Of a DNA stretch of 64,000 nucleotides, positions 21,265-55,560 are shown one piece after another. The stretch lies in NCBI GenBank assembly GCA_964035575.1, contig OZ037845.1, positions 1,612,001 through 1,676,000 on the forward strand, written 5' to 3'. Made by a program: the position numbers and the translations under genes. Under the pieces are notes generated by a model. That model had not been told where the DNA came from, made no database searches, and saw nothing but the letters and a program-made list of their open reading frames with translations. This DNA comes from Rhynchopus sp. YZ270_cl-10 (taxonomy: Eukaryota). Within the stretch, counting starts at the first letter, position 1. Every line of letters starts with the position of its first letter.

Positions 21265-22808
21265 GTGACTAAGCAGAAGAGGCTTGGAATCATCTTATAA
21301 AATTTTCTTTTATTTTGCTCATGTTCACGTGCACACTGCGACTTGTGTATGGTCAGTGTGTGGGTAATATGCGTGTTGAATGTGGTATATGACAACCAAG
21401 ACTCGGCTAAGAGAAGGCCTTACTCAGGTCACCAGTCAGATATCAGCGGCGAACCGTTTACATGTGCCATTTGCTTGGATTGCGGTTTCTTGTGCAGAAT
21501 GAATGTCTGCACAGTCGTTTGAGATCTTCGTATGAATCAACCTTTCTTTGGTAGACCTACTGACTCACAGTCAGGTAGGTATCTGTCCAGGACACAAATA
21601 ATTTGTTCTCTCTTTTTACCGTTCTTGAATGAAGACGTGCAGTTGATGGGTGCAGTCACCTTTCAGGTGTTTTCTCATGGCTCCCACACCATTGGGAGCA
21701 AGTTCCTGTGTTTGCGCTGTAGTCTTTTTTTTCTCGGTGTCTGCGTCCGCACTGCACGATTTACATTCTTATATCATTTCACTTCTGGTTGGCCATGGCG
21801 CTGTCATCACTCCCTGTTCCCGCCCCTCCACCCTCCCACAATGTTAAGCCGCTTTCGTCGCCTTTTTGCGCAGTGCGTATTTGGCGATGAAACGCAGTTT
21901 CCAATGATTCTGCTTTTCTTGCAGATGTCTTTCGCTTCTTCTATGCTGCACCCTCCCCTCTCTCCACCCTCCCAGTTGGAAGGCCAACTCGTTTGCGACA
22001 AATCAGGGGAAGTATTGTCTCAGTTGAATGCGGTAGCTTCATTTAGCTTCAACTGCGGTGTCAACAGGGACAAACACTGCCCCTCCCTTATTTGTCACGG
22101 TGCGTGCTTTTTTCGTAGTTATGTTACGTTAAGGTATTTCTATGTATCAGCAGGTGACTAAGCACTTTATGATTACCAATGTTCAAAAAATTAAAGTAAT
22201 CTATTCAGACTAAGCACAACGAGGTTCGCGTTCACCTTTTGTTAATTATTGTGTTCTGTGATGAGACGTATTCATCTTACAATCTATTTATGTCTGCGCT
22301 CCGCTGGTGGTGAGGCGTCTGCACTTTCAACTTCCCTTTATTTTTTGCATCCTTCCTTCATGTGACCAAGCTCGCTTGGGATCATCTTATAAACCCCTTT
22401 TTCTTTTTGGCCAGATCCCTTACCACGCCTCCCAGCAGATGCAAAGGGGAAAACCCCCTCTGTTCTTTATTTTACCCGCAGTTTTAGTTACGTCGTGCTT
22501 CACACGGCGTATATTTTTACATGATTCCCCTACTCCCCCAACACTGTTTTTTTTTTTTCTAAACTTCTAACTTTTGAGGACGAGCTGCCGATCTGTTATA
22601 TGGAACACTGCTGAATTCGACGCCATGCAGACTTTTTTTATACCATTTTTTTCTTGTTTTGGTACAGCATGCACATTCTTACCCCTTAGGATGGTTTGAT
22701 AGGTGGCCTCAGTTTTCCGCGCAAAAAAACACCCCTTTCCTTTTCAGACAAAAAGAGACTTTACACAACATTCTTTTTAAAAAGGCGTTTGAACTAAGAC
22801 GTTGAACG

Positions 22809-25396: not shown

Positions 25397-25624
25397 TAAA
25401 AAAAAAGACCAAAAAAAAAATTTTTTTTGCTTACACGCAGTGTTATTAGAAACTGAACTTGATTAGCCAACGGTAAATTTGTCCTCACGCCTTTTCCTTT
25501 TGAATCATTCCCCTCCCCCAATCAATTATCATGTGCGCCACCCAGGGTAAGAGCCTAAATGGCTTCCTAAAATGGCTGCGGTCAACGAAAAATATTTTTC
25601 GACTACAGCTTCCAAAGCTACACT

Positions 25625-27539: not shown

Positions 27540-28400
27540 TATGATGTGTGCTGACTATGCTTGGCACTTCATATGCGCTTACGGCGCCCCTTATCCACTC
27601 CTCGTGACGGCGAATGGGTAAACTTTATTTGTAATTTTCATTTTTTGTCTTCTTTGTATTTTATTTTTATTTTTTATCATGTCTGTGCAGAGGCCGATCG
27701 CGTGTCCGTTATTGTCGTGTATTCAGTGATTTGGTTGCCTGTCTTATTGTATGTGCATATGCGCTTATTCGCAATGTCTGCATGGTTCTCTCCTGCAAAG
27801 TGTGGGTTATTCCAGTGGTCAAGGGCCACTGTGACATGGTCAAGGACCGTGTCTTTTGTACCAAGCTGGGTTGTTTTTCAAGTGTGCGCTGCTCGTAGAT
27901 GGACATGGTGTACCTCGCGGTCGAGGATACTATACGGTACCGTAGTGCCCGCTGTCTTGGTGATGGCGCGTGCAAGAAATGTTTATCTTTATGATGTGTG
28001 CTGACTATGCTTGGCACTTCATATGCGCTCACGGCGTCCCCTTATCCAGTGTCCTGTCCTCGTGATAGCGAATGGATATAAACCTTTTATTTTATTTTAT
28101 TTTTTTGTATGATGTGTGCTGACTATGTTTGGTACTTCATATGCGCTCACAGCGCCCTTTATCCAGTGTCCACGTGATACCGAATGGATGCAAACTTTTT
28201 TATTTTTGTTATGATGTGTGCTGACTATGCTTGGTACTTCATATGCGCTTACAGCGCCCTTATCCAGTGTCCACGTGATGCCGAATGGATACAACCCTTT
28301 TTATTTTTGTATGATGTGTGCTTGGCACTTCATATGCGCTTGCAGCGCCCCTTATCCAGTGTCCTGTCCTCGCGATAGCGAATGGATATAAACCTTTTTA
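27540..28400 (+). repeat. Array of five ~95-nt structured units separated by T-tracts
   Basis: Units start at ~27540, 27990, 28108, 28210 and 28310: tatgatgtgtgctgactatgcttggcacttcatatgcgcttacagcgccc(c)ttatcca...cgaatggata..aaac(c)tttt. A partial sixth starts at ~28408. Confidence 0.92.
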
Positions 28401-29049
28401 TTTTTTGGTGAGTGCTGACTTCTCAGTGCCCCATTCGCTTCGGCGTACCTGTCTCTACACTGCTCCCGAGGCGGCGGTAGAACAGTTTTGTTTTGATCAG
28501 TTGTTCGGTTTGTGCAGTTTTGATCAGTACTGGTTCTCCTCTCAATCGGTTTGGATGGACAGGGCCAGTGGGGTTTTTGTACCCATCTAGAGGGTTCTCG
28601 TGGCTGTGCGTTCCGCCCTCCCCCGCAGAAGCTGCGAGGTTGACGGCGGATGCCGTGTTTACAGGTTTCTCTCTTTTCCCACCTTCCCTCCCTTTTCTCC
28701 CCCTTAAACTCCATACTCTGCTACCTTTCCGCTACGCGGTCCCTTTGGGCTATGCTGCGGTCAACGAAAAAAGACTCAGTAGTAGATTAGTGAGGACAAA
28801 TCAAGTGGCAAAATGTTAGTTTAGTTTTTTTTGAGCATTTATTTTGAAATCGATGCTCTCTTTTTCTCTCCCTGTTGTGTACGCTATATGGCACATTCAT
28901 CTTTTTTAAAGTTTTCTTCTTCTTCTCATTTGTTTTCAAAGACATGCATGCTACCCTTAGTAGGGTCACATTCATTCTTTTCAGTGCTTATGCCTAGACA
29001 TTTGCACTATCCATTTATTTAGTTTTTCAAAGGTGACGGTCAACTGTTG

Positions 29050-29176
29050 CCACCTGATTTTTACTCCGCGTATAGGCGCGTAAAGGTGTGTATAGGGCCG
29101 TATAGGTCCGTAAAGGCATATACGGACCGTTCGTACACGCCTTTACGCGCCTATACGCGGGGTAAAAATCAGGTGG
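29050..29176. mobile_element. 127-bp palindromic MITE, 5-bp TSD tgttg
   Basis: ccacctgattttta...taaaaatcaggtgg near-complete fold-back. TSD at 29045-29049 and 29177-29181. Confidence 0.85.
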
Positions 29177-32060
29177 TGTTGGGTCATCTTCAATTTTCTT
29201 GTTTTATTTTGTCAGTTTTGTGTAATCCTTTTTTGCGACAGTAAGGCTAAAAGCCAAAAAGACACTACCAAGGTAGTGTGCTCTATTATGTGATGGAGTT
29301 CCTCCATTGTGAGTCCATTCACAGAAAAACGAAACAAAAAAAAAAAACGCATTGGGTAGCGAGTGACCCAGTATAATTCAATAGCTGTTCTTGCCAGTTT
29401 CTTTTTATTATTATTTGTTCTGTTCTTAAAATGGGACATTTTTTTTCTTTTTTCTTTGCGTGAATTTGCAACAAAACACAATGCGTGATTTCTGGTTTTG
29501 CACCTTTTTTTTTTTTTTTTTCTTTCTTCTTTTCTTCAAAGTAAAGATGTGCAATGAATACGTCTCCTCCCTGTGAGACGCATATTCATTTCACATTTCT
29601 TTTAGGATAGCTAAGCTACCTTCTGAGGCTTAGCTTCATCTCCATTTTATAATGCGACTAAGCACGAGAGGCTTAGGATCATCTTATAAACTTTTCCTTT
29701 ATTTTTTTTTTCCTCTTTTTTTCAGATGTGCACATGAGACTTCATCCTTAAAACACATAATTATTTTGCGTGATCAAGACAGGTAATGGGGTGGCGCCTG
29801 GTGGTTATTCCGGTGTAGAATGAAAAATAAAACCACCAGCCACTCCACAAGGTATCTCGTCTTATTTGTTGCACCTCAACAAAAAAAAACTACAAATCAC
29901 TATTTTCTGATAGTTCTGCGAGAAGGCGTTGACGACTTCGTTCCCCTTTTAGTTTCTAGATATTGGCTAAATACGGGAGGCTTGGGCTGGGTTCAAACGT
30001 GGTACGCGGCTTTTACGTAGTACATACGTAGTAGTTACATCGTATTGTGAAAACTTTTCTCTTGTGCTTTCATCCGGATGGCTGGCATCGTACGTGGGTC
30101 AGTCGGAGGTGCCTGCATTAATAACTTCACTTTCTCTTGTTTTCCCTTCTCTCCACCCATTTGTGCAAACAATTCTCGTGGAAGGGGGGGGCGAAGATGA
30201 GAGAGAGGGATCAGAGTCATCGCTGCTTTAAATTTTGCGCTCCAAAAATATTTAAAAACCAGATTTCAAAAAAAAAAAAAAAAAGGGAACTAATACAAAA
30301 ACCCACCTCAAAGTGGGTAATTTTCGAGAACGGGGCGATCTTTCAATTTATCTTATCAATTTTGTGTGTGTGTGTGTTTTTTTTTTTCTCTCTTTTTTTT
30401 TGGAGAAAAAAATCTTTCAGGGTGAGCACTACAAGGCTTTTGCTCATCTTCATCGCCAAAAAAAGATTTTTTTTTGGCAATAAATGTTTTTGTGGGCTTT
30501 TTATTTTATTATGAAAGTGTCCCACAATGTGTCCAGATATGCATAAATGCATCGTTTTTGTACCCAACATTACCCCACTCTCTTCCACCCCCTTTTTTTA
30601 CTGTGATTTCCTCTTATATGTTTTTTTTGTCCAAGGTACACCTTTTTTTCGTACCCTGTTAGTAAACACGTAGTATTTGACAAAATGCTCGAGACCCTCG
30701 TGAAGAGTGGAAGCGAACAACAAACAACCTTAAATTTTCCTCTTCCCCGTTTTCAGCCTTTTGAGCAACAAGCAAAGAGTAACGAGTCTCTCGAGCATTT
30801 TTTTTTTTGTATGGCAAATAGATAAAAATGACAGTGGAGAGTGCACAACTGTGGCAACACAACCGAGGCAACTACACTACTCCAACAATTTATCAAAAAA
30901 AACATGGAGATCACGCACAAGCAAGGTGACTACACGTTGTCAATTTATCAAAAACAAATGAAATGGCGATTATCTTGCTGTCTCTGTAGAGAGACGTGAA
31001 GAGAGGGACGATTTTTTTTTTGTTCTTTTTTAAAAAATATTTGAAATTGGATTTCCGATTGTTGTGCTTTTTTTTTTTTACATAGAGAATGTAGTGTGAG
31101 TTAACCTCTTCTCTCCCCCCCTGCCCCCCTTTAACCCCCCTGGTTCTCGGTCCAGAGCTCTTCCTGCTAGTTCTGTTGCTGTCTTTGCTGTGCAAACACT
31201 TTCCCCTCATTTTCCCCTCCCTTTTGAATACGTAAAAAAAACAAAACAAAACAAAAATAGTGGAATGGTGAACAACACCCCCCGGATGTGCGGCTACCAG
31301 AGACACACATTTTCCAGATGTAAACCACGAAATGGATTGTAGGACTGCATGGTTGGGTGTCCACCCCCCGGTACAGCCGGTCATTGTACCAAGGTACACT
31401 GTGTTCACGAGAGGGCTTCTGGATTTCAACTCTACTTTTTCCTCCAGATGTCATATGAGTGATATGAGTGAGTCACACCCCTCTGAGGTGAGCGTGGTCC
31501 GTCCTTTTCAGGAGTGTTTTTTTTTCTCTCTTCTTCTTCGGTACTTCAGGTTCTTTTTGTTTGCCTTTTTTTTTTAGGTGACTGAGCACTGTGGCTTAGG
31601 GTTGTCTTACAAACTTTATCAAAAAAAAAAAAAAAGACTACTCCGGGGTTCGGTAACCCTCGGAGCGTCAGTGCACTGCATTCCCTGTGCCTTGCACTAC
31701 CAACTTCACCCTTTTTCTTTTTGTTTCACATCTATTGCAAAGCTCTAACTCCTTCTATTTGCTTTAAAAAAAGGATCTTGAAGAAAAATCTGTGGCTGCT
31801 ATCCTGTAGTCGGAAAATCAAACAATTTTTTTTTTGTTTCTCATCAAACAGTTTTTCGCCGTGAATTTTGTTTCTGGGGTTCCATAACCCGCGGAGAACC
31901 AGTGCCCGCGTCTGCCGATGAACGGTGAGTCGTTTTCACTTTCAACTTTTCTTTGGTTTGACCCAATCTGATCTTCGCGTAGGACGGTGGGTAGCGTACC
32001 AACTAAACAAAAGACGAACGGGGTTTTTATTATTTTTGTTTTTTGTTTCTCTTTCATCAA

Positions 32061-32187
32061 CCACCTGATTTTTACCCCGGGTACAGGCGCATAAAGGCGT
32101 GTACAGACGGTCCGTATATGCCTTTACGGACCTATACGGCCCTATACACACCTTTACGCGCCTATACGCGGGGTAAAAATCAGGTAG
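32061..32187. mobile_element. Second copy (inverted) of the 127-bp palindromic MITE, 5-bp TSD atcaa
   Basis: Near reverse complement of 29050-29176. TSD at 32056-32060 and 32188-32192. Confidence 0.85.
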
Positions 32188-35100
32188 ATCAAACAGTTTT
32201 TCGCCATATTTGAATTTGTTTTTTTGTCCCATCTTATCTTCTACTCTAACTTATAGGGCGCTTGTCCCCCCGAGCTCGGGGGGGTATATTCTCCAGAAAA
32301 AAAAAAAATAAACGAAAAAAAAAGGCTGAATTTGAGAGATCAGATCATTCGTGAATTGATACTCACTTTTCGCTCTTTTTTTTTGGAATGATGTGTTTTC
32401 CTGATGCTTATTTATCACAAAAAAAAAAAATACTGTGGGGGGTACATACCAGATTAAATCCCGCATGATGAATAAAAGAACGGAAAAGAGTTAGGGAAGG
32501 TGGTTTCCACCAGTGGGAACTACATCATTTCTAACAATTTATTTCAAAAAAAGGAAAAAGAAAAAATGGCGAATTTTCGCTGAGGGGGAAATAAATGAAA
32601 TATTGCACACAAACAAAGTGTCTGCTTTATTTTGCTATCATGTTTTGTTTTTATTTTTTGTTTTTACTATCAACTTCACTTTCTCTCTTATTTTGGCAAA
32701 CGGGGGAACACAAACGCGAACCCGTAAAAAAATTTTATTGCATTGATGACCTTTTTTTGGGGGTCATACCAAGGTACACTGTCACAAGAGGGCTTTGTGT
32801 TTCAAGTCTTATGTACCTGTATACAATCTCTCTCGTGGTACCCGTATTATGTCAATGAAGTGCTCTCTGGGGTTCGATACCCCGCAGAGAATCAGTGCAT
32901 GCGTCCGTCGATGAACGGTACGTCGTTTTTGCGCTTTCAACTTCTCTCGAAACCTATTTTTTTCTTGTTTTTTGCACCTCCACCCCGAAAAAACAACAAA
33001 AAAAAAAAACTCGAAGTCGGACTGAATGCGAGCCCCGAGAGGCCCGTTCGACCCTTTAATGTGAAAAAGAAAACCGAGGCAGGAGCTTTTAAGTTTTTCT
33101 TATGCATTTCTCCTCATTTTCAAGGTGACTACGCAATTGTTATGATGAGGCTTAAGTTCATCTTATAAACTTTTCTTTCTTTATTTTTGACCATTTTTAT
33201 AACCATGTCTGTTGACAAGGCGTCATCATTCGACACTATCTCCCGCAAGCTAACTTTACCATTTCTAAAAAAAAATGCCCATTCCCCTCCCCTTTCCCCC
33301 AAAAAAAAAAATCAGAGTTATTTTTTGGTTATCCCATGTCAAGGTCACGAAAGTTGAAAGCAGCTGAACACTGATTTATCAAAAAAGAAAAAAATGTGAA
33401 AAATCACAAAAAATGGCTGCATCAATCTTTCAACAAAAGGGGGCTGCAGGGTATTTGTGCTTTCATCCAGATAGCTGGCATCGTACGTGGGTCAGTCGGA
33501 GGTGCCTGCACCAACTACCATTTCATTTCAATCTTCCCACCTATCCCCCCTAACACAATTATACTAGAGTTTTGTTATGTACTTTATGTAATGTCTAAAA
33601 AAATACAGTAGCGACTGTCCATGTGACAGCTTACACTAATACAGCAAATTATTTTGTTTGTGCGTAAAGTGTGTAATAAATATTCTGTGGTGATTATTAT
33701 TACTGCAATACGCTCCCACTGACTACCTGGGCCGTGAAGAGGAAACTTCTTTGAGGCCAAAAAAGGGTGCACAGACCATCTGCGTGATAGCTGGCCATTT
33801 TAAGATTATTCAATAAGAGGTGGTCATCTTTTCAATGATTTCTGGTCTCCTGAATTGAAAATTATTTGAAATTTAGCAAAAAAAAAAAAAAAAAAAAAAA
33901 GGAAAAAAAAAAAACACATGGCATAATTGCAGAGCTCGCGCTAAAGTCCATCCCTCATCCCGGGATTTTTGGGGGTTTTGGTAGGAACGTTTTTTTTTTG
34001 CAGTACGGGGATTTCATTAAGAAACCAGAAGTTCTAATATTGTTGAGTAAGACCACCACATAGTGGGCTTGCATATACATGTGACCCCGCCGTGGAACGC
34101 AATTGGCTCGGAAAGTCAAAAGAAAGAGGAGAAAAAAGAAAAGGAAAAAAAAAAAAAAAAAAGTTGGTTACCGTGCGCCTGCGGCGCTGCCTGTTCCCTT
34201 CCAGTTTCTACAGGCAAACACTTGCCCCCTTTACCTTACACTGACGGGTTTTGACCAAAACCAAGAACTTGTCCATTTCGGCAAATTGACCCCACCACAG
34301 AACGGACGAATTCCGGAAATGCAAATGCCGGTGTTTTCGCGCATTTTCATGTTGCAAGACGTCAGGATCAGGGAGAGAAAATCTGGTTGTGGGATTTACA
34401 TTGGCCCTCTTTACCCACATGGATTTTGACCAAAACCAAAAAAATGGCCATTTCGGCAAAGTGACCCCACCACAGCGCGGACGGATTCCGGAAATTCCAA
34501 TCGCGGTATGTTTTGGGGCTGAAAACCCACTGATTTTCAGGAGAAAAATTGCTTCCAAATCTCGGAATTTTCCGAATTTTCCTGAAAATGACCCTTGTTT
34601 ACGAGTATGGGTTCATATTTTGCGAAAATTTAAGTCACTAAAATTTTGTCCATTTTTCCGTATATACCCCACCACAAGCCGGGATTGGCCCGGAAATGCC
34701 ACAAAACGGGGTTTCCGGGCCTCCCCAGCTAACCTTTTCAAGGAACGTTTTTCCGTACCCGAAATCCATTTTTTCCCCATTTTTCCCCATAATTAGCGCG
34801 ACCACTGCATAATTGGTACAAACAAAACAAACCAAAGCAAACCAATATCCCCTGATACAGCATCTCAAAGCAATGTCTTTTTATTTGGTTTATTATGGCC
34901 CTCGGGATACCCAAAAACCGACCTTCAGGGGCAGGGCGTGTCTAGCTGCGGTCTTCATCGATCCCAGAGCCAAGACATCCACCGATAAGTGCAGTTTGTT
35001 GTCGCCTGCAGTAGACAGCGCTACAGTACTATTTTCTTGTAAAAAAAAAACAAAAAACAAAAATGGCTGGGGATATGAAGAGGCCACGTGGCTTGCCGAG

Positions 35101-36739
35101 CGGTTGTGAACCGCCTCCGTTCTCTTACGGTACGGACCACTCACTTTTCTTCCCTTTTGCCTAAGCTCGACTGAGATGTGTTTTAGCACATCTCAACTCC
35201 TTTAGTTCTGATGTAATCATTCAATTCTTTGGATAGCAGCCTTTTGTGGCATGATGCTGTCTTTGTAGGATTGTTTGATTGTCATTACGCGGGGATAGGG
35301 AGAGATGGAGAAGGTAAAAAGAGAAATGATACAGTCAGTCGTCTTCAAAACTGCAAAGAAAAAGAAGAAAAAAAGTAAAAAAAATAATGGGGGAAAAAAT
35401 ACCAATACCAATCGTGTATCCCTCCACTGTCCTCAAAAATCTGTTTTTAGTTCTGGTTTTTTCCCCTCAACTTTTAGTGAATCTCCTTTTTTACACCCCC
35501 CTTTTTTTTTAATCCCCCTTTTGATGCATTCGTCCTGCGTTTGCATATTTTAGTGTTTTTTTGTTTTGTTTTGTTTCAGCAAATAAAGAATGTTCTCTGC
35601 TCCTTCCTGTTCCCAGCGCCCCTCTTTTAGTTTCGAATCAGCTCTGCAATAACAGAGGGCCTTTTTTTTTAGATGATGGCAGATGAACATGCGCGTAAGG
35701 TATATTCATCTTCCAAGGTCCAAGGCTTGGTACACATTTAACGCCCGATGTAGGTTTTTATTTCCCCCTAAAAAAAATAGTTGTACTTAGCGTGACATCT
35801 GATTTGTACCCTCAGTTTGTTGATGTTTACCGGTGTTTGCCGGCCGGTCATGGCAAACACCGGGAAAAACTCAGGGTCCAAATTAGGTGATAATCTGATG
35901 AAGCTGGAGGAGAAAAGATTTTTTTAAAACTCCAGCGTATTCCGGCGAGATAACGATAGTGATACATGATGTATGTGTGCACGAGAGGCACGATTCATCT
36001 TACAAGCAAGTTTCCCTTTTTGCTTTTTTTTTGTTTTTCCTTTGTGTGCCATTAGACGACGAACCTTTGCAAAAATTTCTCGCCGTTTTTTTTTCTTCTT
36101 CTCGCACGAAACTCCCCCCATTTTTAGATTGACCAAACAAAACACTCACTGCTTAGGTTCATCTTATCAACATTTTCTCCCCCCCACTTATTGATTTTGT
36201 GCACGGCAATGCACACATTTTTTTTTCATTTTTACTTTTTCAATTTCCCTCTTTTTCCTTTTCAAATTCTCTTCAACCTTCAAAAAATTGTGCTTCACTC
36301 TATAGCACAGAGGGTTTTTCCCCCTCTCAACTGTTTTTTTCCTTTTTTTCTTTTTTTGTTTTCGTTTCTTTCAACGAAGACAGGCAAATAAACAAACAAA
36401 TAACAAGGACATTTGACAGTGGCTGAGAAAGAGGATAAGTCGTAATCTCATACAAAGTAACGCGCCCTTCCTCTCCAACTCCACGTCTACAAAACTATCA
36501 AGCAAAATTAAACAGAGCACAAAAGCACTTTCAAAACATACAAAAAACATTTTCAAACCCCCCTATCAACTGTTGGTTGTTTTCCCCACAAACCAAAGAT
36601 TTCTCCCGACGTTTTCCCTATAGGTACCTCATGAGTTTTCCCTCATGTTCAAAGCCTTTCATCCCCCACCCACGAAACAAACCCCATTATATGCAAAAAC
36701 CCTCTTGTGAACCACTGGCTGGGGTGGTTGTTTACGACT

Positions 36740-36875
36740 AATAGTGGCAGTATTGTGATGGGAGCCCATTGGAATACGCAAAATACATCAAAATGCATCA
36801 CAATACACGTATTGTGATGCATTTTTATGTATTTTGCGTATTCCAATGGGCTCCCATCACAATACTGCCACCATT
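36740..36875. mobile_element. Near-perfect ~135-bp fold-back element, ~9-bp TSD (MULE-like)
   Basis: gtggcagtattgtgatgggagcccattgg...ccaatgggctcccatcacaatactgccac, with gtttacgac on both flanks. Confidence 0.7.
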
Positions 36876-37086
36876 GTTTACGACCCCCTCTTTATCATAA
36901 CGTGCCCTTTCCTCTCACGACTTCACGTCAACACCGCTAATCAAAAAAATTAACAGAGCACAAAGCACAAAGCACTTTCACAACAAACACCATTTTTTTA
37001 AAACCCCTTATCATGTTGGCGCCTAATAGGGTACTGTGTTTTTAACCCCACCGGCATTTTTTTTTTTTTTTTTTTTGTGGCTTACT

Positions 37087-37720
37087 CAGGGTATTAGGGT
37101 GAAAATCCAAAATTCCGGAAAAAACTGGTTTTTCTGGTTTTCTCTCCTGGGTGGCGAAAACTAGTGTTTCCGGCGAAAACATCCACCGTTGACGGACACA
37201 GTCACCTTTTTCGGGTTTTTCGGGGGTGGGGTCAGTGTCTTATCCAGGAATCCAGATTCGAAATATTTTTCGGCGCTGCTGACCCAGGGTAGACATTGGG
37301 AACATAGGGACTGTATTTTTTTGCGGGGCAAACAAATAATATAAAATGGCGCCGCAGGCGAAAATTTTTGAGGGTACGGTGTAAAAATCTAGCTTTTTAC
37401 ACCACAGAGCCACTCAAACGAACCCTTTTTTGCGGAGCAAAAAATGAAAAATGGCGCCGCAGGCAAAAAAAAAATCAAGGAACAGCCATTTCCCAAAGGC
37501 ACTCCCGTGGTTCAACCACGGTTCTACCAGGCGGGGAAAAAATGCGGGGGAAAAAATCGAGTCCGCCCTAATCTGGGGACGACATTTACAGAAAGTCCTG
37601 GTGAAAAGTGTCGGTTTTTTTTTCCCCTCCAGATTTCTCTGTTTTTTTTTTTTTTTTGAAAACCAGTTTTTGGAAAAACTGGTTTTCAAAACCAGTTTTT
37701 TTAACCACCCTAATACCCTG
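37087..37720. mobile_element. Non-autonomous hAT element, 8-bp TSD
   Basis: TIRs cagggtattagggtg / caccctaataccctg. TSD ggcttact at 37079-37086 and 37721-37728. Confidence 0.88.
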
Positions 37721-40700: not shown

Positions 40701-42241
40701 AATGGTTTTCGTTTTATTCTGAATGATTAAAATTAATCTGCGAACGTCGAGCTGAAAGAACGCAAAGAAGAGCGGGGCGGTTGGGTAATAACAATACCAC
40801 TGCAAAAAGCCCCCACTTTCCACACACAAAAAAAAAGGAGCTGATTGCAAAGGGGTTCCGTCAATAATACCCCCTCCTCTTTAGTCTTGTCTTCTTTTTA
40901 GTCGATTTTTTTTTTTTGTCTGTTGAGTGTTTTTAGGCGAGTCGCAGGCAAACAGAAACTCACATAGGTAACAACCCTGTTTTTTTTATAGCGAACTTTT
41001 TACCACAACATTTTTTTTTCTCTTCAACTTCAACCTGTTCTTCATGACGGCCTTGTTACCAGTGTAACAAGGTCACCGTCTATTTCCCCTTCCCCTCTCC
41101 CGAACGACTTCTCTTTTTCTTCTGCTCGTTTGCAAAGAGATGTAAAGGTTCTGATGGAGATTTTGCTATCATTTGGACATTTTAGTCGCACACTATTTCA
41201 ATCATTCGATCCGAAAGAGCCCCGATATTTCGGTTTGTATTATTTCCTTACAACTGTAAGCGTACCGCTTCTGTTGTATACAAACAAAAAACAAAAAAAA
41301 CGATTAAAAAAACGAAAAATGCGTCTTTTGTTATATCGACAAAAAAAACGCATATCCCCTTTAAGGTGACTATGCAAAGCATAGTTTCATCTTCCCAACT
41401 TTTTCCCCTTTAGTTGCTGTTTTAGTTTATCTTTTTTGAGTACCATTTTGGTAACACCAAAACACTGCCTCCTTCCCCCCCCCCCCCCCAGAAGTTGTAT
41501 TTTTTTTATTGTGATTCACACCTTTCCCAAAGCCTTTTCCTTGCTTTTGCTTTTGTTGCTGAGGTTCCTGAGCATGAAGCTGTGCCTCATTTATGCCAAC
41601 AAAAGGTATCATTCTGTTTCGAAGTGCAGGCATTGTGCCTCATGAGATCTCCCCTCTTCTTTCGAAACAGTCCACTACCCCACACCCCGCCCACGGCCTC
41701 AGATGCTAGCGTTGTTGATACTTTTGCCGCTCATTATTTGTCTTTACGGAATCTGTGCTTGCAGCCTCAAAGGCACTTGCACTTACAACTTCCAGTTTCT
41801 TTCTGACCGCACCCCCACCCCATATCCCCACAAATTCCTCTATATTCTTTTGTTCAGCTGCATGAAATAACAGCGGGTACAAAACATAACAATAACATTG
41901 TGTCAGATGAGGGTCCTAATGTGTCTCATCTCTGTCACACTCATGGATGAGGTGTGCCCTCTGTGCGTATCCTAGCCCGTTTCTAAGATGTGCAGGCAGA
42001 GGCATGTTCATCTTACAAGTGTTTTTCTTTTTTTTTTTTGGTGGGTGACAATTGAGTCGTCAGAGTACAGGTGGGTGATTGTTGCTGCAACAAAAGAGCT
42101 TCCCCGTACTCAGATGCAAACATAACAAAGAAAAGTGAATAATTAAAAAAAAAAAGCCCTCCCGCATCCCCGTTGGTGTCCACCACAGCCCTATTCTGCA
42201 TACCCCCTCCATCACACCCTCCAGATACTTCAGCGCCAACA

Positions 42242-45200
42242 ATGAACCCTCTCCGTGCTCTCACGCTCCTCACTGTGTATGCGGTGAGCGCCACCAGTCT
42301 TGTAATCCCTACGTACTGCTCGGTCCAGGGACCGCTCTGTGACTTGGAACTGACCGAGTGCAAGCAGGGATACACCTGCACGAAGGACCCCACATGCGCC
42401 CCTGGTGACAAGTGTGAGGCGTGCTGTGTGCTTGACACCCCTGTGCCTGCTCCCACTTTCTGCACCAACCAGGGACCTACCTGTGGACACGGACTCCCCG
42501 ACTGCAAGCTCGGCTACACCTGCACTGTTGACCCCAACTGCCGTGACCTTGAGTGCGAGAGGTGCTGTGTCCTCGACACCCCTGTGCCTGCTCCCACTTT
42601 CTGCACCAACCAGGGACCCACCTGTGGACACGGACTCCCCGACTGCAAGCTCGGATACACCTGCACTGTTGACCCCAACTGCCGCGACCTTGAGTGCGAG
42701 AGATGCTGTGTGCTTGACACCCCTGTGCCTGCTCCCACTTTCTGCACCAACCAGGGACCTACCTGTGGACACGGACTCCCCGACTGCAAGCTCGGCTACA
42801 CCTGCACTGTTGACCCCAACTGCCGCGACCTTGAGTGCGAGAGATGCTGTGTGCTTGACACCCCTGTGCCTGCTCCCACTTTCTGCACCAACCAGGGACC
42901 CACCTGTGGACACGGACTCCCCGACTGCAAGCTCGGCTACACCTGCACTGTTGACCCCAACTGCCGTGACCTTGAGTGCGAGAGGTGCTGTGTCCTCGAC
43001 ACCCCTGTGCCTGCTCCCACTTTCTGCACCAACCAGGGACCCACCTGTGGACACGGACTCCCCGACTGCAAGCTCGGTTACACCTGCACTGTTGACCCCA
43101 ACTGCCGCGACCTTGAGTGCGAGAGGTGCTGTGTGCTTGACACCCCTGTGCCTGCTCCCACTTTCTGCACCAACCAGGGACCCACCTGTGGACACGGACT
43201 CCCCGACTGCAAGCTCGGATACACCTGCACTGTTGACCCCAACTGCCGCGACCTTGAGTGCGAGAGATGCTGTGTGCTTGACACCCCTGTGCCTGCTCCC
43301 ACTTTCTGCACCAACCAGGGACCTACCTGTGGACACGGACTCCCCGACTGCAAGCTCGGCTACACCTGCACTGTTGACCCCAACTGCCGTGACCTTGAGT
43401 GCGAGAGATGCTGTGTGCTTGACACCCCTGTGCCTGCTCCCACTTTCTGCACCAACCAGGGACCCACCTGTGGACACGGACTCCCCGACTGCAAGCTCGG
43501 CTACACCTGCACTGTTGACCCCAACTGCCGTGACCTTGAGTGCGAGAGATGCTGTGTGCTTGACACCCCTGTGCCTGCTCCCACTTTCTGCACCAACCAG
43601 GGACCCACCTGTGGACACGGACTCCCCGACTGCAAGCTCGGCTACACCTGCACTGTTGACCCCAACTGCCGCGACCTTGAGTGCGAGAGGTGCTGTGTGC
43701 TTGACACCCCTGTGCCTGCTCCCACTTTCTGCACCAACCAGGGACCTACCTGTGGACACGGACTCCCCGACTGCAAGCTCGGCTACACCTGCACTGTTGA
43801 CCCCAACTGCCGTGACCTTGAGTGCGAGAGGTGCTGTGTGCTTGACACCCCTGTGCCTGCTCCCACTTTCTGCACCAACCAGGGACCTACCTGTGGACAC
43901 GGACTCCCCGACTGCAAGCTCGGCTACACCTGCACTGTTGACCCCAACTGCCGTGACCTTGAGTGCGAGAGGTGCTGTGTCCTCGACACCCCTGTGCCTG
44001 CTCCCACTTTCTGCACCAACCAGGGACCCACCTGTGGACACGGACTCCCCGACTGCAAGCTCGGCTACACCTGCACTGTTGACCCCAACTGCCGTGACCT
44101 TGAGTGCGAGAGATGCTGTGTGCTTGACACCCCTGTGCCTGCTCCCACTTTCTGCACCAACCAGGGACCTACCTGTGGACACGGACTCCCCGACTGCAAG
44201 CTCGGATACACCTGCACTGTTGACCCCAACTGCCGCGACCTTGAGTGCGAGAGATGCTGTGTGCTTGACACCCCTGTGCCTGCTCCCACTTTCTGCACCA
44301 ACCAGGGACCCACCTGTGGACACGGACTCCCCGACTGCAAGCTCGGCTACACCTGCACTGTTGACCCCAACTGCCGCGACCTTGAGTGCGAGAGATGCTG
44401 TGTGCTTGACACCCCTGTGCCTGCTCCCACTTTCTGCACCAACCAGGGACCCACCTGTGGACACGGACTCCCCGACTGCAAGCTCGGCTACACCTGCACT
44501 GTTGACCCCAACTGCCGTGACCTTGAGTGCGAGAGGTGCTGTGTCCTCGACACCCCTGTGCCTGCTCCCACTTTCTGCACCAACCAGGGACCCACCTGTG
44601 GACACGGACTCCCCGACTGCAAGCTCGGCTACACCTGCACTGTTGACCCCAACTGCCGTGACCTTGAGTGCGAGAGATGCTGTGTGCTTGACACCCCTGT
44701 GCCTGCTCCCACTTTCTGCACCAACCAGGGACCTACCTGTGGACACGGACTCCCCGACTGCAAGCTCGGCTACACCTGCACTGTTGACCCCAACTGCCGC
44801 GACCTTGAGTGCGAGAGGTGCTGTGTGCTTGACACCCCTGTGCCTGCTCCCACTTTCTGCACCAACCAGGGACCTACCTGTGGACACGGACTCCCCGACT
44901 GCAAGCTCGGTTACACCTGCACTGTTGACCCCAACTGCCGCGACCTTGAGTGCGAGAGGTGCTGTGTGCTTGACACCCCTGTGCCTGCTCCCACTTTCTG
45001 CACCAACCAGGGACCTACCTGTGGACACGGACTCCCCGACTGCAAGCTCGGCTACACCTGCACTGTTGACCCCAACTGCCGCGACCTTGAGTGCGAGAGG
45101 TGCTGTGTGCTTGACACCCCTGTGCCTGCTCCCACCTTCTGTTCCGCTCAGGGACCTACCTGCGACGTGGAACTGACCGAGTGCAAGCAGGGCTACACCT

Positions 45201-45583
45201 GCACGAAGGACCCCACCTGTGCCCCTGGCGACAAGTGTGAGGCGTGCTGTGTGCGTGACGACGTGCCCGCACCCACCACCTACTGCAGCAACCAGGGCCC
45301 GACCTGTGGTCTGTCGCACGACGCATGCAAGGAGGGCTACACCTGCACTGCCGACCCCACCTGCGACAAGAGCCCTGAGCAGTGTGAGAGCTGCTGTGTG
45401 AGGGACACGACCACGCCGTGCTGTGCTGCTGTGCCGACGTGCAAGGAGGGCTTCAAGCAGAAGAAGCGCCCTGTGTGCCACTCGCAGAACCCTGAGCGCT
45501 GCTACGTGACCGAGCTGTGCTGCACGAAGATTGCGTGCAAGCACATTAAGCTCAGCAGCACCGACGCTGACGATGAGGAGTAG
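42242..45583 (+). CDS. Secreted cysteine-rich tandem-repeat protein
   Basis: Signal-peptide-like MNPLRALTLLTVYAVSATS, ~22 eight-Cys modules and a Cys-rich C-terminus ending DADDEE. No TM segment. Variation among repeats is synonymous in this frame. Confidence 0.88.
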   Translation: MNPLRALTLLTVYAVSATSLVIPTYCSVQGPLCDLELTECKQGYTCTKDPTCAPGDKCEACCVLDTPVPAPTFCTNQGPTCGHGLPDCKLGYTCTVDPNCRDLECERCCVLDTPVPAPTFCTNQGPTCGHGLPDCKLGYTCTVDPNCRDLECERCCVLDTPVPAPTFCTNQGPTCGHGLPDCKLGYTCTVDPNCRDLECERCCVLDTPVPAPTFCTNQGPTCGHGLPDCKLGYTCTVDPNCRDLECERCCVLDTPVPAPTFCTNQGPTCGHGLPDCKLGYTCTVDPNCRDLECERCCVLDTPVPAPTFCTNQGPTCGHGLPDCKLGYTCTVDPNCRDLECERCCVLDTPVPAPTFCTNQGPTCGHGLPDCKLGYTCTVDPNCRDLECERCCVLDTPVPAPTFCTNQGPTCGHGLPDCKLGYTCTVDPNCRDLECERCCVLDTPVPAPTFCTNQGPTCGHGLPDCKLGYTCTVDPNCRDLECERCCVLDTPVPAPTFCTNQGPTCGHGLPDCKLGYTCTVDPNCRDLECERCCVLDTPVPAPTFCTNQGPTCGHGLPDCKLGYTCTVDPNCRDLECERCCVLDTPVPAPTFCTNQGPTCGHGLPDCKLGYTCTVDPNCRDLECERCCVLDTPVPAPTFCTNQGPTCGHGLPDCKLGYTCTVDPNCRDLECERCCVLDTPVPAPTFCTNQGPTCGHGLPDCKLGYTCTVDPNCRDLECERCCVLDTPVPAPTFCTNQGPTCGHGLPDCKLGYTCTVDPNCRDLECERCCVLDTPVPAPTFCTNQGPTCGHGLPDCKLGYTCTVDPNCRDLECERCCVLDTPVPAPTFCTNQGPTCGHGLPDCKLGYTCTVDPNCRDLECERCCVLDTPVPAPTFCTNQGPTCGHGLPDCKLGYTCTVDPNCRDLECERCCVLDTPVPAPTFCTNQGPTCGHGLPDCKLGYTCTVDPNCRDLECERCCVLDTPVPAPTFCSAQGPTCDVELTECKQGYTCTKDPTCAPGDKCEACCVRDDVPAPTTYCSNQGPTCGLSHDACKEGYTCTADPTCDKSPEQCESCCVRDTTTPCCAAVPTCKEGFKQKKRPVCHSQNPERCYVTELCCTKIACKHIKLSSTDADDEE
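42458..45136 (+). repeat. 141-bp coding tandem repeat, 19 copies
   Basis: FCTNQGPTCGHGLPDCKLGYTCTVDPNCRDLECERCCVLDTPVPAPT x19 (2679/141 = 19). Confidence 0.95.
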
Positions 45584-46788
45584 GTGTTTTGACTTTGTCC
45601 CTGCCCTGCTCCGTCCTTTGGATGATTGAATATGCCCTCCCACCTTCACCTTCACATTCCCATCCCGATCACCCATTTCAGATATTGGCACACCTGCTGT
45701 GTCACGACTCTGAATTGCCCCAGAATAGGCCTGACTGAAAATGTCTACGTTTGAGACGTGCAATATCTACGCAGAAGGAAGTGACTCAAATCTGCACCTT
45801 TCGTGCATCTTTTTTGGGTGAACCCTATTAACGCGGAGTTGCGACGTCACTGTCATCAGATGCAGGCTTCAGTAAGTACTTATTCGCTTTCATTTTATTG
45901 TCATTATTTTTTTTGTTTTGTTTCCCCCCTCTTCGCATGCCTTTATCATTTTACGGAGTGGGCACCGTGCACACAGTCTGAGTGATGATTTTCTACAATG
46001 CCTTGGGTGCCTTGGCCCTGAACATTGCATTTTTTTTTTTTTGAGTACGCGAGTCTTTGGGTACTCTTATTCAAACCCCCTTTTTTCATCAGATGTAAAC
46101 CACGAAATGGATGTACCAAAGTACACTGTTCACAAGAGGGCTTTACCTTTTTTTTTTTTTTTTTTTTTTTTGCTCGACTGATGTGCACGACCCTGTCTCC
46201 TTAGTTTTTGTTTATAGAAAAGAACGCGTTTAAAATACTCATTTTTTCATGAATTCATTGGACAGATTGCAATAACAATTTGAATACGTACACATTACGC
46301 CACATGCACAGTGTTGTGTGTCGTTATGTTGTTCAAATGTTTTGCACCTTTCTGAAGCTTCCTCCTACTCATATTCATTAAAGTCGTATATGAGACGCGA
46401 ATCTTTTCTCGGTGAGCATGAGAGTCTTGTGTTCATCTTACCTGCGGTTTTTTTTATTTTTATTTGTTGCCTTTTATGAATTTATTCCTTTAGTAGAAGC
46501 CATTCCGGATGTTATTTACTCCAGACAACGCGCTTCGATGTTGCAGAAAACAGATTTGAAAACGATGTGTGCTAGAATCATGCATTTTCCAAACCTTTTT
46601 CACTGAATACTAAAAAAGCAACGCACCCCATCCCCCTCATGATTTTCCCTACCAATTTCCCCGATTTTCCCCGAACCCAACTCAACCTTCCCCCCTAAAT
46701 TACGCCTTCTCCTTCTCCTTCTTCCATCCATAGTACAGAGGGCTACGGCCAAGAGAGGGCATTGACTGCCCCTTAGCAACACTACAAG

Positions 46789-49700
46789 ATGATGGGCGCG
46801 TTGAGCGAGCGGATCGCGGCAGAGTTCCAGAAGCGGACGAAGAAGACGGACGGAAAGTACTTCAACAACCCTAAGCGTGGAACCAAGCGCGACGAGCAGA
46901 GCGAGCTGAAGGAGGACCTGAACAGCAACGACATCTCCCGGCAGAAGGACGCCGTGAAGCGCATCATTGCGAACATGACTGTGGGGCGCGACGTGAGCCC
47001 GCTCTTCACGGATGTGGTGATGGTGTCACGCACAACGAACATGGAGCTCAAGAAGCTTATCTATCTCTACATCATGGCAAACGCGAAGTTGAAGCCCGAA
47101 ACAGCAATCCTCGCTGTCAACACCTTCATCCAGGACAGCCAGCCCAGCAGCCCTGTCATCATCCGTGCCCTTGCGATCCGCACGATGCTTTGCGTCAGGG
47201 TCGAGAACATGGACCAGCACTGCTCCCTCCCCCTCCGTGCCGCGCTCAAGGACGAAAGCGAATACGTCCGCAAGACGGCTTGCATCGCCGTGCTGAAGCT
47301 CTTCCACGCAAACCCAAAGTCCTGCGAAGACCAAGGCTTCATCGACATCCTCAAATCGCTGCTGACCGACAAGTCGCCGATGGTTGTCGCCAACGCAGTG
47401 GTGGCGCTCAATGAGATACGAGAGAACTCCTCCTTCGACACAGAGCTCACCCCTGCCCTCGTGTCGCGCCTCATGAGCACCATGGGGAAGTGTGCAGAGT
47501 GGGGGCAGGTCAGCATCCTCGACTTCGTGTCGAAGCATGTGACAGATGCGACCGGTGCAGAGAGCATCATCGAACGCATCCTGCCGCGCCTGCAGCACAG
47601 CAACCATGCGGTGGTGCTCAGTGCCTTCAGGTGCATCGTCGCCAACCTCGATGTGCTTCCGGAGGAGCGCAAGCGGGCGGTGCTGTCGAAGCTGACACCG
47701 TCGTTTGTGTCGCTCATGAACGCGCCCGGTGAGACACAGTACGTCGCGCTGCGCAACATCCAGCTGCTCATGCAGAAGTACACCGGCCTCTTCACGAACA
47801 AGGACGTGAAGGTGTTCTTCTGCCACTACACAGACCCCACCTGCGTCAAGCTTGAGAAGCTCAACATGCTCCTCCGTCTCTTCAACGAACGCAACGCGCA
47901 GGTCATCCTCCGCGAGCTGCGAGAGTACTGTGAGGAGTGCGAGCCCGTCTTCGTGTCCAAGAGCATTGAGGCGCTTGGGTCTTGCGCCGTGCGCATGGAG
48001 TCGGCAGCAGTCAATGTGGCAGAGATTCTTGTGAACCTGGCGCAGAAGCAGCACCTTGTGCAGCCGACGCTTGGAGCCGTCAAGGACGTGCTCAGGAAGG
48101 TTTGTCCCAAAAAAATACCATACCCATACCATATCCCAACCAAAGGGCACTTTGTATCCCTTCAATAAAAAGGACCCCTCAACACCACACCATCTCACAT
48201 CACACCACAGTACCCCGACATGTTCCTCGACATCCTCCCCCCCATCCTGGAGGCCATCGAGGTGGACGCAATGGAGGACACAGAGGCAAAGTGTTCGCTC
48301 ATCTGGTGCATGGGCGAGTTTGGCGAACAGCTGCCCGAGGTGAAGGAGAAGCTGCTCTACTTCGTGGAGACGTTCGAAGACCACCCGACACAGACGCAGG
48401 TATGGCATAGCGTTGCTCACACCACTGCACCACCTCACCACAGCTGGCGACGCTCACGTCCACGGTGAAGTTCTTCCTCCGTGACGGAGTCAACAACGAG
48501 GAGATGCTCAATGTATGTGAAACACCATAGTGCACGCAGACACCATACGCCATACACCATACACAGGACGTGCTGCGTAAGGCAACCGCGAACGGCAACC
48601 CCGACCTGCGCGACCGTGCCTACATGTACTGGCGCATGGTGTCGAACGAGAAGAACGCAACCAAGCTCAGCTCCTTCGTCATCGGTAAGAAGCCGCCGAT
48701 CCGTGCGGAGGGCGCAGACGAGCTGGACCCCAGCCGCCTGAACGAGCTGCTTGCGAACTTCAACACTGTGTCCGCGGTGTACCACAAGGCACCGGCAGCC
48801 TTCCTGCGTCGCTACGGACTGGAGGACGAGCCCGTGGATGAGGAGGATGACGACGATTTCAACGAGACGGAGGAGCTCACTGCCGCAGACGACACCTCGC
48901 CCACAGTCATCACGACGCCCACAGACCTCAGCGGCACAGCCTCCTCGCAGCCCAGCACCTACACACCCACGCCCTACGCAGAGAAGAAGCCTGCACTCGA
49001 CTTCTTCGACTTCGGCCCCTCCACAGCAGCACCCACACCAGGTGAGCTCCCGCAACTGCTCGACCCCGCACAGTGCGACGGCCTGCGCCTCTGCGGTCGC
49101 TTCGACGCAGATGAGGACAAAGCCGTGCTGCGCCTAGAGTTCACCAACACTACGAACGCACCTATGAGTAACTTCGCCATCCAGTTCAACACAAACCTGC
49201 ACGGTCTGAAGCCTACGCCGCTTGGCTTCCAGCAGATCGACGCACACATGACGCAGCCCACGACTCTTGGTCTTGTGCACGTCCCCGAGCACGTCAACAA
49301 GGCGACAGCAGACGTCCAGATCGCCTTCAAGAACTCCTCAGGGACGTACTACTGCACGCTTGAGTCGCCGCTAGACGGGTGCCTCGCAAAGGGAGGTGGC
49401 ATGAGCAAGGCAGACGGCTTCATCCCCCGCTGGAAGGAGCTCACGCACATGCAGAAGTACGAGGTGAACGTGCCGAACCCACAATCCCTGCAGGCATCCA
49501 TGCAGGCAGCGTGCTTCGCGCTCGTGGGTGCCAAGGCGCCGTGTGCGTACTACTCTGCACGGACACTGGCGGGTGGCAACATCTTGGTAGAGAGCTGTGA
49601 AAAGCCTGGTTCTCAAATGGTCACTTTCACCGTCAAGTCGGAAGACCCGTATGTCATTCACAGCTTATATTACGTTATCTTTTTACGACCGTATCGTCAT

Positions 49701-49863
49701 CAGTGTACACCACGGTCTCTTGGATACGAGCATTCCGTTGCACGAGGGGGGGTTTTTTTTTTGTCAACACGTTTATCTTTTTACTGACTACAACACCACA
49801 CCACACCACAGTATCTACACCGCGAAGTGGGTTGCCGCAGGGCTGCAGAACGCCACAAGCTGA
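46789..49863 (+). CDS. Beta-adaptin (AP-1/AP-2 beta subunit), 5 exons
   Basis: Motifs KRIIANMTVGRDVS, ELKKLIYLY, IRALAIRTM, YVRKTA, YVALRNI, NPDLRDRAYMYWR, plus an ear domain. Exons 46789-48099, 48211-48399, 48444-48512, 48567-49648 and 49812-49863 join in frame via GT-AG introns. Confidence 0.93.
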
Positions 49864-51659
49864 CGAAGACGCTTTGAGGTAGAGCGGAGTTAGGTTTGAG
49901 AATGGAAAGGGGTGAAAATGGGGTGGGAAGGGGCGAGGGGAAGAGTTGTGTGTTTTTTCTTTCTTTTTATGATGTGTGCACCAGCGGCACATTCATCTTT
50001 GTTTTCGTTATTTTGTGATGCCACGTGTACCATTTTGTTATGTGTTCTCCCCCCCCGCTTCGCTGTGTTCGTTGGTCGAACATAAGCAAAAAACGTTTAA
50101 AAAACACACACACACACACACACTAACATCGATCCTAGAAATTGCCACACCCGCCCTACCACAGGGCAGCTGTGTGTGGCAACGTTCCCTGCGTCCCGTG
50201 AGGTGTCTTCACGTTATTAACTTCCCCTTTTAGATGGGTGTGCAAGAAAAGCATATTCCATCAAGATTTTCTTTCGGAATATTTGCTGGCGGCGGAATGG
50301 CTCCATCTTTCATTCTTTTTTGGACGCTAAACCCTACCTTCACCAACCCCATTACCTCGGAACACTTTCTCCTTCCCCCCGCCCTTGAAACAGCATTTCA
50401 TCTAGCTTTTGTGCTTTCCCCCCCTCCCGTCTTGAGATTCTCTCTTGTGTGGCTTGGTTTTGTCTTTATATGTCTTGTGGTTCATGAGCCACGAAGTTCG
50501 CGTAGAACGAAAAATAAGGAAAAGAAAAAAATCTGGTAGAGTATTGTTTTGCGTTTTGTGTTGCGTTGTCAGCAGAGTAACACAATGGCACTTGTCATGA
50601 CATGGTAAACACATGTTGCAAGCACAGTAACAAACATAAAGCGTTAACGAGAACTTCTTGTCAAATGTGCTTGTCATGTCAGGACAGGTGTCGTCGTGAA
50701 GTTGAATAAGGAGCGGTGGGGGTGTGGTCTGGACGTGGGGTGCCAAACATAAACCCCTTCTTTGAGTGCCTGCGTCCTCTGGTGCCCTGTGAGGCGTTTG
50801 CATTTTCAACTTTCCCCCCTTTTTGTGCCAACACGTTGTTAAACCAACGACCAAAAAGGCAGCAAAAACAAAAACAAAATAATCTTGGGACAGTGACAAC
50901 TGTGGGGGGTAGCAATAGAAGGGTTTGCTACCTCTTTTTTTTGTGTGTGGATTATGGATGGCACAGAATGGAGAAGGCGAGGGAGGAGGGGGGGGACGCC
51001 CACTGAAGGTGGCGTTTGAGACAAAAAAACGCAAACAAAAACGAGACAAAGCATTTTCAGAAAAAAAAAACAAAAAAACGTCACCAAAAAAGGACGGAAA
51101 AAAATGCGACAGTTATAACAACCAAAACAAAGCACCGTTGTCGACCACATCATTCTGCATACACATTCCTCTTCCTGCAGCCCGCTCCTTTCTGTGACTC
51201 AAGCGTGCTCCCACACGATAACGATAGTGGTACGTACATATGTGTACACGAGAGTGACATTCATCTTGTTTCTTTCCAAGATGACTCAACACGAGACGCT
51301 TGGGTTCTGTTAATTGAGCAATCAACGAAAAAGCATTTTTTTCCTTTTACTTCTATGAGAGTTACTATTTACTATTACTATTCTGCCGCCACTTGACACC
51401 ACAGTGCCACAACGCTACTAAGATTGCACCACCACACCACACCAAGGGCCATATTCTGCGCAAGAATTACCCTCACTAGGCATCCTCCACACCACACCAC
51501 GTACCTTGCAGAGATCCAACGGGTTGCAACACATCCACATACGCTCCTATACCACCCACACCCCTACTCCCACACCCCTTCCCTCCCCTTCGCCTCTCCA
51601 CTTCTCACTTCCCACCCTTCCCTCCCCCAACCCCTCTGCCCCTCTGCCCCCCTAAATGA

Positions 51660-55510: not shown

Positions 55511-55560
55511 TAAGGTGACTAAGCACGAGAGGCTTAGGATCATCTTATAAACTTTTCTTT
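55511..55560 (+). repeat. Dispersed ~45-nt hairpin element (consensus copy)
   Basis: taaggtga ctaagc acgagag gcttag ga tcatctta taaacttttcttt. Identical at 57780 and near-identical at 29656 and 61495. Confidence 0.9.

Follow-up and report, generated by a model that had tools for sequence, protein, structure and literature searches.

Here we report a sequence link between two kinds of repeat in a 64,000-nucleotide stretch of Rhynchopus sp. YZ270_cl-10 DNA (contig OZ037845.1, positions 1,612,001 to 1,676,000; hereafter the window): a tandem array of short structured units in the 3' region of a reverse transcriptase (RT) element, and a family of short hairpins dispersed through the same DNA. The first hairpin of the array units matches a solo hairpin at position 49968 in both stem arms, which supports, at the level of sequence, a common origin of array hairpin 1 and the 49968-type hairpins. 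The array belongs to a multi-copy element without gag and recombinase, likely a VIPER-type derivative, and the reading that we favour, with about an even chance of being right, is that hairpin 1 is a captured copy of the ~45-nt repeat and not a signal by which the RT recognizes its substrate. It is carried by the layout of the element, the agreement of hairpin 1 with 49968 in both arms and, for the hairpins, by their abundance, their orientation on one strand and one pair of filled and empty sites. A preliminary description of this DNA had inferred that either the RT mobilises short structured RNAs with a shared 3' end or the element mimics a host RNA-processing signal; capture of a repeat copy by a retroelement is a third option beyond these two, and the one that we favour.

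The match between array and dispersed hairpins

Covariance models were built from the dispersed hairpins (R1 and R3, the latter without the 49968 copy) and from the array units (R2). The controls for the array/hairpin match were picked post hoc, with the match already seen.

The hairpin at 49968 had been described as opening with the same 12 nt as the array unit and ending like the dispersed family, and both parts of this description hold. The 12-mer TATGATGTGTGC is exact and occurs six times, always on the + strand, at five array unit starts and at 49968, against 0.015-0.018 occurrences expected outside the array (Markov orders 2-4). R3 detects the 49968 hairpin at 28 bits and an E value of 0.002, which places it genuinely within the dispersed family. 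Twelve nucleotides is also the length of the longest word common to unit U2 and the 28 hairpin matches, a length reached in 14 of 5000 shuffles. The right arm matches as well: the two-arm pattern is found only at 27540 (U1), 27990 (U2) and 49968, and in none of 100 shuffled windows. Scored with a free loop and a right arm offset by one base, the two-arm match reaches 20 at 49968 and 17 at the next-best position, 28871, and the maximum in 300 hairpin-preserving shuffles was 19. A plain local alignment of array hairpin 1 is weaker, its score being reached in one of 40 shuffles. The related hairpins that had been noted at about 35968, 41984 and 51238 are indeed dispersed-family copies, at 35968, 41985 and 51236, all three of the TGTGC/GCACA subfamily.

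Both families had further been said to end in a stem followed by (T)AAAC(C)TTTT. This tail proved specific to the two families but is carried by few of their members. TAAAC(C) followed by four T residues occurs at none of 993 T-runs outside both families, and AAAC(C) precedes three of these runs; the full tail is present in two of the five units (U2 and U5) and in six of the 25 listed hairpins, all six of the CTAAGC type, and is absent from the copies closest to the array by stem (49968, 35968, 41985, 51236 and 28873). The array nine-mer TGACTATGC, previously assigned to a copy at 41362, is present at 41367, at a level expected by chance (0.15-0.29 copies) that makes it no evidence of a link; at 41367 it forms a stem arm of the family with one compensated change, and in the array it lies in a loop. 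The array-hairpin link is real but narrow, its support being a single copy and a short tail.

The element, its array and the hairpin family

The element is ordered A repeat, RT open reading frame (ORF), array and B repeat. Contigs and their depth, from runs that include X2, X5, X6 and X8, were compared over window positions 24900-33800, a span that leaves 49968 outside. One contig record of X8 (record 26) is exactly the A repeat, at 2.4 times the ORF depth. The last 17 nt of A (25576-25592) equal the first 17 nt of B (28755-28771), and the start of A is inverted relative to the end of B (28791-28806) in blocks of 8 and 12 nt (25457-25464 and 25477-25488). The split repeats of the window element thus comprise A1 and one B with a 17-nt overlap; no second A copy (A2) follows B at the window locus, and the A-to-B junction appears as a loose end in X8 contigs. 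An extension of B to the hairpin at 28873 was considered and dropped, as depth sets the end of B near 28806. At 28697-28771 a second variant is present at family depth in X6, and the 3' repeats may exceed a simple A1..B arrangement.

The ATG of the ORF lies 32 nt past A, a gap from which we conclude that gag and recombinase are gone. No gag-like first ORF or recombinase ORF was found upstream of the RT ORF in the window element, and a tyrosine recombinase probe gave no tblastn match in the window, although the same probe matched 13 of 54 related loci. We therefore regard the window element as a deletion derivative, likely of VIPER type, of a VIPER-like tyrosine-recombinase retrotransposon, and not as an autonomous member. 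The solved structure nearest to the window RT is Ty3 RT (E 4e-9); the protein classifies by homology as a long terminal repeat (LTR)-class RT/RNase H. Pfam RVT_1 matches its relatives, the window protein itself reaching just E 0.035, and the catalytic motif reads WVDN in 51 of the 55 proteins in which the pattern was located. The named relatives are Diplonema papillatum proteins of 38-52% identity, some of which carry the recombinase domain PF00589; these matches by themselves make a diplonemid the likely host. Two RT subfamilies, 87% identical and sharing the Arg/Gly-rich N-terminus, are intact on at least 15 and at least 24 contigs. Third codon positions hold 16 of the 18 listed differences between one contig and the window RT, a codon pattern by which the RT is under purifying selection despite the loss of gag and recombinase.

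The array is part of the element family: three X6 contigs cover 25563-28783 at depths of 9.5-10.6 with one difference. In four of four runs the depth of the A repeat exceeds that of the ORF by a factor of 2.4-11, so short clients of the element family seem to carry A/B. The array bins stand at 1.1-3.6 times the ORF depth, or are uncovered, and the hairpin bin at ~70-560 times; the long unit itself is therefore not dispersed.

The RT belongs to a large family, with 797 representatives at E <= 1e-30. Viral contigs contained no relative of it. The set of related elements comprised 54 metagenome loci of 24-41% identity, mostly contigs of the element alone. Complete relatives among them have, in this order, a short ORF1, a recombinase ORF and an RT ORF that overlaps; the A1..B1-A2-B2 arrangement, with overlaps of 14-31 nt, is seen in three loci (L011, L016 and L031). 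In seven of the 54 loci (L015, L017, L030, L038, L039, L045 and L046), contigs of ~4-4.5 kb with a WVDN-type RT, the two ends overlap exactly over 81-123 nt; such ends identify them, from the assembled sequence, as circular or tandem forms of VIPER-like elements. R2 found no array module in the 54 loci, whose elements are distant relatives, and R1 gave one match, at E 0.31, in contigs that, being of the element alone, cannot show host hairpins. The word CGAAA is common to the A/B overlaps of the window element (25576-25592 and 28755-28771), L011 (97-127), L016 (4282-4295) and L031 (95-112); its recurrence in three distant relatives might reflect a conserved strand-transfer signal. B of L031 contains a word, GGACAAATCAA, that is similar to the inverted copies by which A begins and B ends.

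VIPER/TATE elements are tyrosine-recombinase retrotransposons of kinetoplastids with an A1..B1-A2-B2 layout (PMC6681497). Like them, the window element has an RT/RNase H ORF, A, B and a shared overlap, and its relatives have ORF1, a recombinase, an overlapping RT and the same repeat layout. Unlike them, it has no gag or recombinase, an ATG of its own, the Arg/Gly-rich N-terminus and a 1.2-kb 3' region with the tandem array, and it lacks A2. The VIPER-like assignment is made by layout and RT class, the RT tree containing no VIPER/TATE rows.

Each of the units U1-U5 is predicted to fold as three hairpins, with the + strand beating the − strand in all five, and pairing on + is retained in five of five variant stem states among them. 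A sixth, diverged unit probably follows with the same predicted layout; it gave a fold z-score of -1.1 and an R2 match at E 0.99, and was also aligned to U2. Positions 28428-28436 within it have an alternative pairing partner at the end of U5 (z -3.7). Unit hairpins 2 and 3 have no counterpart elsewhere, 11 of 40 shuffles being as good. TCCTCG and CGAATGG in the 3' half of the unit are words that we take to resemble a hepatitis delta virus (HDV)-like ribozyme. A descriptor of its nested double pseudoknot (6-7-bp P1, P3, L3, P1.1 and J4/2) gave no match on either strand of 25300-28900, even with one P1 mismatch, nor did Rfam, and this candidate was rejected. A kink-turn or selenocysteine insertion sequence, presumed from features of a GA bulge, was likewise rejected, since the bulge is not conserved in the alignment.

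The dispersed hairpins are a separate, discrete and very abundant repeat of ~45 nt. R1 gave 34 matches at E <= 10, 32 of them on +, and the two − matches overlap + copies. All 28 matches with E < 1, of which 24 are R1's own training copies, are in T-rich tracts and have the orientation of the genes, + (P about 1e-7 against a T-run share of 57%). Word counts made without a model are 15:0 for TTCATCTT and 7:0 for GGTGACTAAGC, + versus −. At 29656, 168 contigs of X2 and 166 of X5 leave the window sequence and enter T-rich flanks; hairpin copies probably number in the thousands, judging from binned depth, which is no copy number. The filled and empty sites compared at 20422-21302 fit an 11-nt duplication with one mismatch. 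Outside one founder column of the model-fitted alignment of dispersed copies, G-T and A-C pairs are equally frequent (21 versus 21), and pairs with double changes number 3 against 4.3 in shuffled controls, as expected of copies that decay after insertion.

A and B match none of the hairpins and match only each other's 17-mer; a composition of A and B terminal repeats, as in SIRE-type elements, was accordingly rejected. Rfam gave no match for the hairpins and a tRNA search found none, which removed a tRNA origin from the candidates. A miniature inverted-repeat transposable element was rejected on the one-sided tail, the G-T pair in the terminal stem and the 28 of 28 matches on +, and a SIDER or short interspersed nuclear element (SINE) signature on the T-rich rather than A-rich tail, the missing tRNA-derived head and the Rfam result. 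Of the 25 listed copies, 13 have an ANA box (ACA or ATA) just 3' of the stem; the copies belong to one inherited family and hence are non-independent. The guide pocket of H/ACA RNAs sits about 14-16 nt from the box; the only candidate for such a pocket in the hairpins is a 2-nt bulge at 7-9 nt. The pattern of the young hairpin subfamily had no match in viral or prokaryote contigs. An extension, GATAACGA, precedes three hairpins from both subfamilies (35950-35967, 51216-51235 and 61480-61496) and hints at a longer parent element. Inverted-repeat elements lie inside two hairpins (20428-21262 and 29050-29176) with 5-6-nt duplications, and hairpins may be preferred targets of such elements.

Capture and its alternatives

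Under capture, a 49968-type copy would have entered the T-rich 3' region of the element, become the first hairpin of a three-hairpin module and then been duplicated in tandem with it. The module may have been retained as an RNA structure acting in stability or 3' processing of element RNA within polycistronic transcripts. The RT would copy it solely along with the element, via the A/B repeats, with gag and recombinase presumably supplied in trans by full-length helpers. As double-stranded DNA, a circle of just 45 bp would be too short for a recombinase to integrate. The solo hairpins might instead spread by target-primed insertion into T-rich tracts, driven by a separate endonuclease-bearing retroposon; this is the weakest step and is drawn by analogy with SIDERs.

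The narrowness of the match accords with a single passenger copy. Without 49968, the longest word common to array and hairpins falls to 9, which is chance level. Cross-scoring with covariance models, the check proposed in the preliminary description, was negative in both directions: R1 and R3 gave no array match at E <= 10 in the window, a search of the array alone gave about 4 bits for R3 and nothing for R1, and R2 placed 49963 at E 0.48, among background.

Several observations weigh against capture. The tail fits the young subfamily and the stem the other one, so that a single captured copy needs a chimeric donor or convergence. Single-unit fold z-scores are modest (-1.2 to -2.2). An exact 9-mer target duplication flanks one of 20 hairpin copies, which does not exceed the null, where 13 of 380 mismatched flank pairs reach the same length. 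The window showed no retroposon with an endonuclease, and from one window the direction of transfer is not readable. Finally, an RT that stays under purifying selection without gag and recombinase leaves room for a role in trans.

On the first inference of the preliminary description, the hairpins would owe their mobility to this RT lineage. The enzyme would recognize a stem with AUAAAC-U4 behind it, the array units would be copies of that signal belonging to the element itself, and the solo hairpins would be minimal parasites, much as with the tails of SINEs and long interspersed nuclear elements (LINEs). We consider this unlikely. The limitation of the tail to the two families (none of the 993 other T-runs), the match of both stem arms at 49968, the retained pairing of the array-unit stems and the multi-copy intact RT with its Arg/Gly-rich N-terminus and no gag or recombinase speak for it, yet the inference found no confirmation: the enzyme is an LTR-class RT of a family with A/B repeats and a recombinase, the hairpins carry neither A nor B, and the element has no endonuclease or recombinase. 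VIPER/TATE elements are described as making no target duplication and as having SIRE, composed of A2 and B2, as their known short form (PMC12278014), yet two hairpin sites look duplicated. The covariance models fail to cross-detect, the array is absent from the loci of the 54 relatives, and RT copies number in the tens against thousands of hairpins. A fuller version, to which we give little credence, would make the element an RT-only offshoot of recombinase retrotransposons in which an RNA-binding head rich in Arg and Gly replaces Gag. It would copy ~45-nt stem plus AUAAAC-U4 RNAs cut from polycistronic transcripts and insert them strand-specifically in transcribed T-tracts, giving a SINE-like family, thousands of copies strong, served by an endonuclease-less LTR-class RT, with the array as a multiplied recognition signal.

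Equally, we doubt that the hairpins are working host RNA signals (for 3' processing or stability, or as H/ACA-like small RNAs) mimicked or co-opted by the retroelement, although the gene-strand orientation of all 28 matches, against the 57% share of T-runs, and the ACA or ATA box of 13 listed copies would fit, and in Leishmania mRNA is acted on by SIDER retroposons lying in sense orientation, according to PMC2689281. The mimicry proposed earlier found little support in our data: G-T pairs are no more frequent than A-C pairs outside the founder column, double-change covariation does not exceed its control, some copies are split by transposons, one is absent from two paralogous sites, and Rfam holds no match. 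The strand bias is moreover common to six other short families and so not special to the hairpins. Movement of the solo hairpins as single-stranded DNA, by Helitron-type or other HUH machinery and with no RT involved, would again make the array match a passenger copy. The hairpins may resemble Helentron-associated short elements; their asymmetric ends, terminal hairpin, insertion in T-runs and inconsistent target duplication agree with this route, and D. papillatum is reported to have Helitron ORFs (PMC10161547). We hold it to be very unlikely, as the filled/empty pair fits an 11-nt duplication, the window contains no Helitron/HUH-type transposase and the strict gene-strand bias is left unexplained. 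Least probable of all is a chance resemblance among short GT- and T-rich hairpins. Every model-level cross-score equals background, one of 40 shuffles matched the local alignment of hairpin 1, and the controls were post hoc for a link that rests on one copy; against this stand four controls, at 14/5000, 0/300, 0/100 and 0/993.

SINE/LINE pairs have the very 3' stem-loop in common, and the LINE partner is an endonuclease-bearing non-LTR element. As in these pairs, a short element and an RT element here share a stem and a tail; unlike in them, the RT belongs to the LTR class and what is shared lies inside the element. Like SIRE of T. cruzi (PMC6681497), the hairpins are short and dispersed, are linked in sequence to a recombinase retrotransposon and occur in a polycistronic genome, but SIRE consists of VIPER terminal repeats, whereas the hairpins match an internal 3' module and neither A nor B, and are about ten times shorter. 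With Leishmania SIDERs they share abundance, intergenic position, sense enrichment and a T-rich upstream flank. SIDERs, a minority of which have vestigial target duplications, measure about 540 nt and have a 79-nt signature and an A-rich tail (PMC2323293 and PMC2689281), unlike the hairpins, which are ~45 nt long with a T-rich end and have neither an HDV-like signature nor a known LINE partner.

Diplonemid repeats are mostly unclassified (PMC10161547). No description of the hairpin family or of an RT-only VIPER-like element was found in the searched literature, whose scope did not extend to subscription papers; none of the seven text files in the supplements of PMC10161547 held two hairpin words or four terms, and its non-text files may list such repeats. 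Two undescribed pieces thus emerge: one is an RT-only VIPER-like element whose RT is constrained by purifying selection, the other a repeat of ~45 nt that occurs on the gene strand about every 2 kb, and both fit known kinds. If the hairpin in the array is a passenger, short repeats and retroelements swap RNA modules in a polycistronic genome. If instead the RT mobilised the hairpins, retroposition would gain a new route, and the priming step of recombinase retrotransposons could be tested with a 45-nt RNA.

Feature positions and other sequences of the window

Table 1. Positions of the element, array units and hairpins in the window
Feature	Position	Strand	Remark
A repeat (5' split direct repeat)	25461..25592	+	contig record; 17-mer common with B
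RT/RNase H ORF, intact, 633 aa, WVDN motif, Arg/Gly-rich N-terminus	25625..27526	+	
Unit U1, three hairpins and tail	27540..27623	+	
Unit U2	27990..28088	+	
Unit U3	28108..28200	+	
Unit U4	28210..28301	+	
Unit U5, first-hairpin loop deleted	28310..28399	+	
Probable sixth diverged unit, same predicted three-hairpin layout, different sequence	28404..28492	+	not significant alone
B repeat, 3' end of element	28755..28806	+	right end from inverted repeat and binned contig depth
Hairpin insertion split by 835-nt inverted-repeat element	20422..21302	+	site empty in paralogues near 10800 and 6355
Dispersed hairpin, C-rich tail at 22388	22361..22398	+	paralogous copy at 11577
Dispersed hairpin just outside element	28873..28903	+	second-best two-arm match (17), inside null range
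Hairpin split by 127-nt inverted-repeat element with 5-nt duplication	29031..29194	+	
Young-subfamily hairpin	29652..29695	+	contigs run off here into T-rich flanks
Young-subfamily hairpin	33123..33174	+	
Dispersed hairpin, TGTGC/GCACA subfamily	35968..36001	+	
Dispersed hairpin, TGACTATGC as stem arm	41364..41399	+	exact 9-nt duplication flanks
Dispersed hairpin, TGTGC/GCACA subfamily	41985..42014	+	
Solo linking hairpin	49968..49999	+	left arm as array hairpin 1, right end as dispersed family
Dispersed hairpin, TGTGC/GCACA subfamily	51236..51267	+	
Young-subfamily hairpin	55513..55556	+	fold z -3.6 on +, -2.0 on −
Young-subfamily hairpin, likely intronic	57782..57825	+	
Young-subfamily hairpin	61497..61540	+	

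A Pfam search of the window identified CAP-domain genes, one beta-adaptin gene, which is interrupted by GT-AG introns, and one TPR gene, all on the + strand. The CAP-domain genes at 12-20165, three of them in tandem, have long Pro/Thr-rich repeats, and their duplicated spacers provide the filled/empty comparison. A fragment resembling 5.8S rRNA lies on the − strand at 34879-34993 (E 2e-4, under the Rfam cut-off). Two perfect 7-nt satellites (12997-13270 and 24661-24832) are near reverse complements of each other, each adjoined by an inverted-repeat element.

Six more families of short repeats keep to one orientation within the window (30062-30133, 31315-31418, 31873-31950, 30826-30902, 22288-22335 and 34250-34340), and two further short families are of mixed orientation. 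Several of the six end in a GCAC-TTCAAC-like word that resembles the hairpin end.

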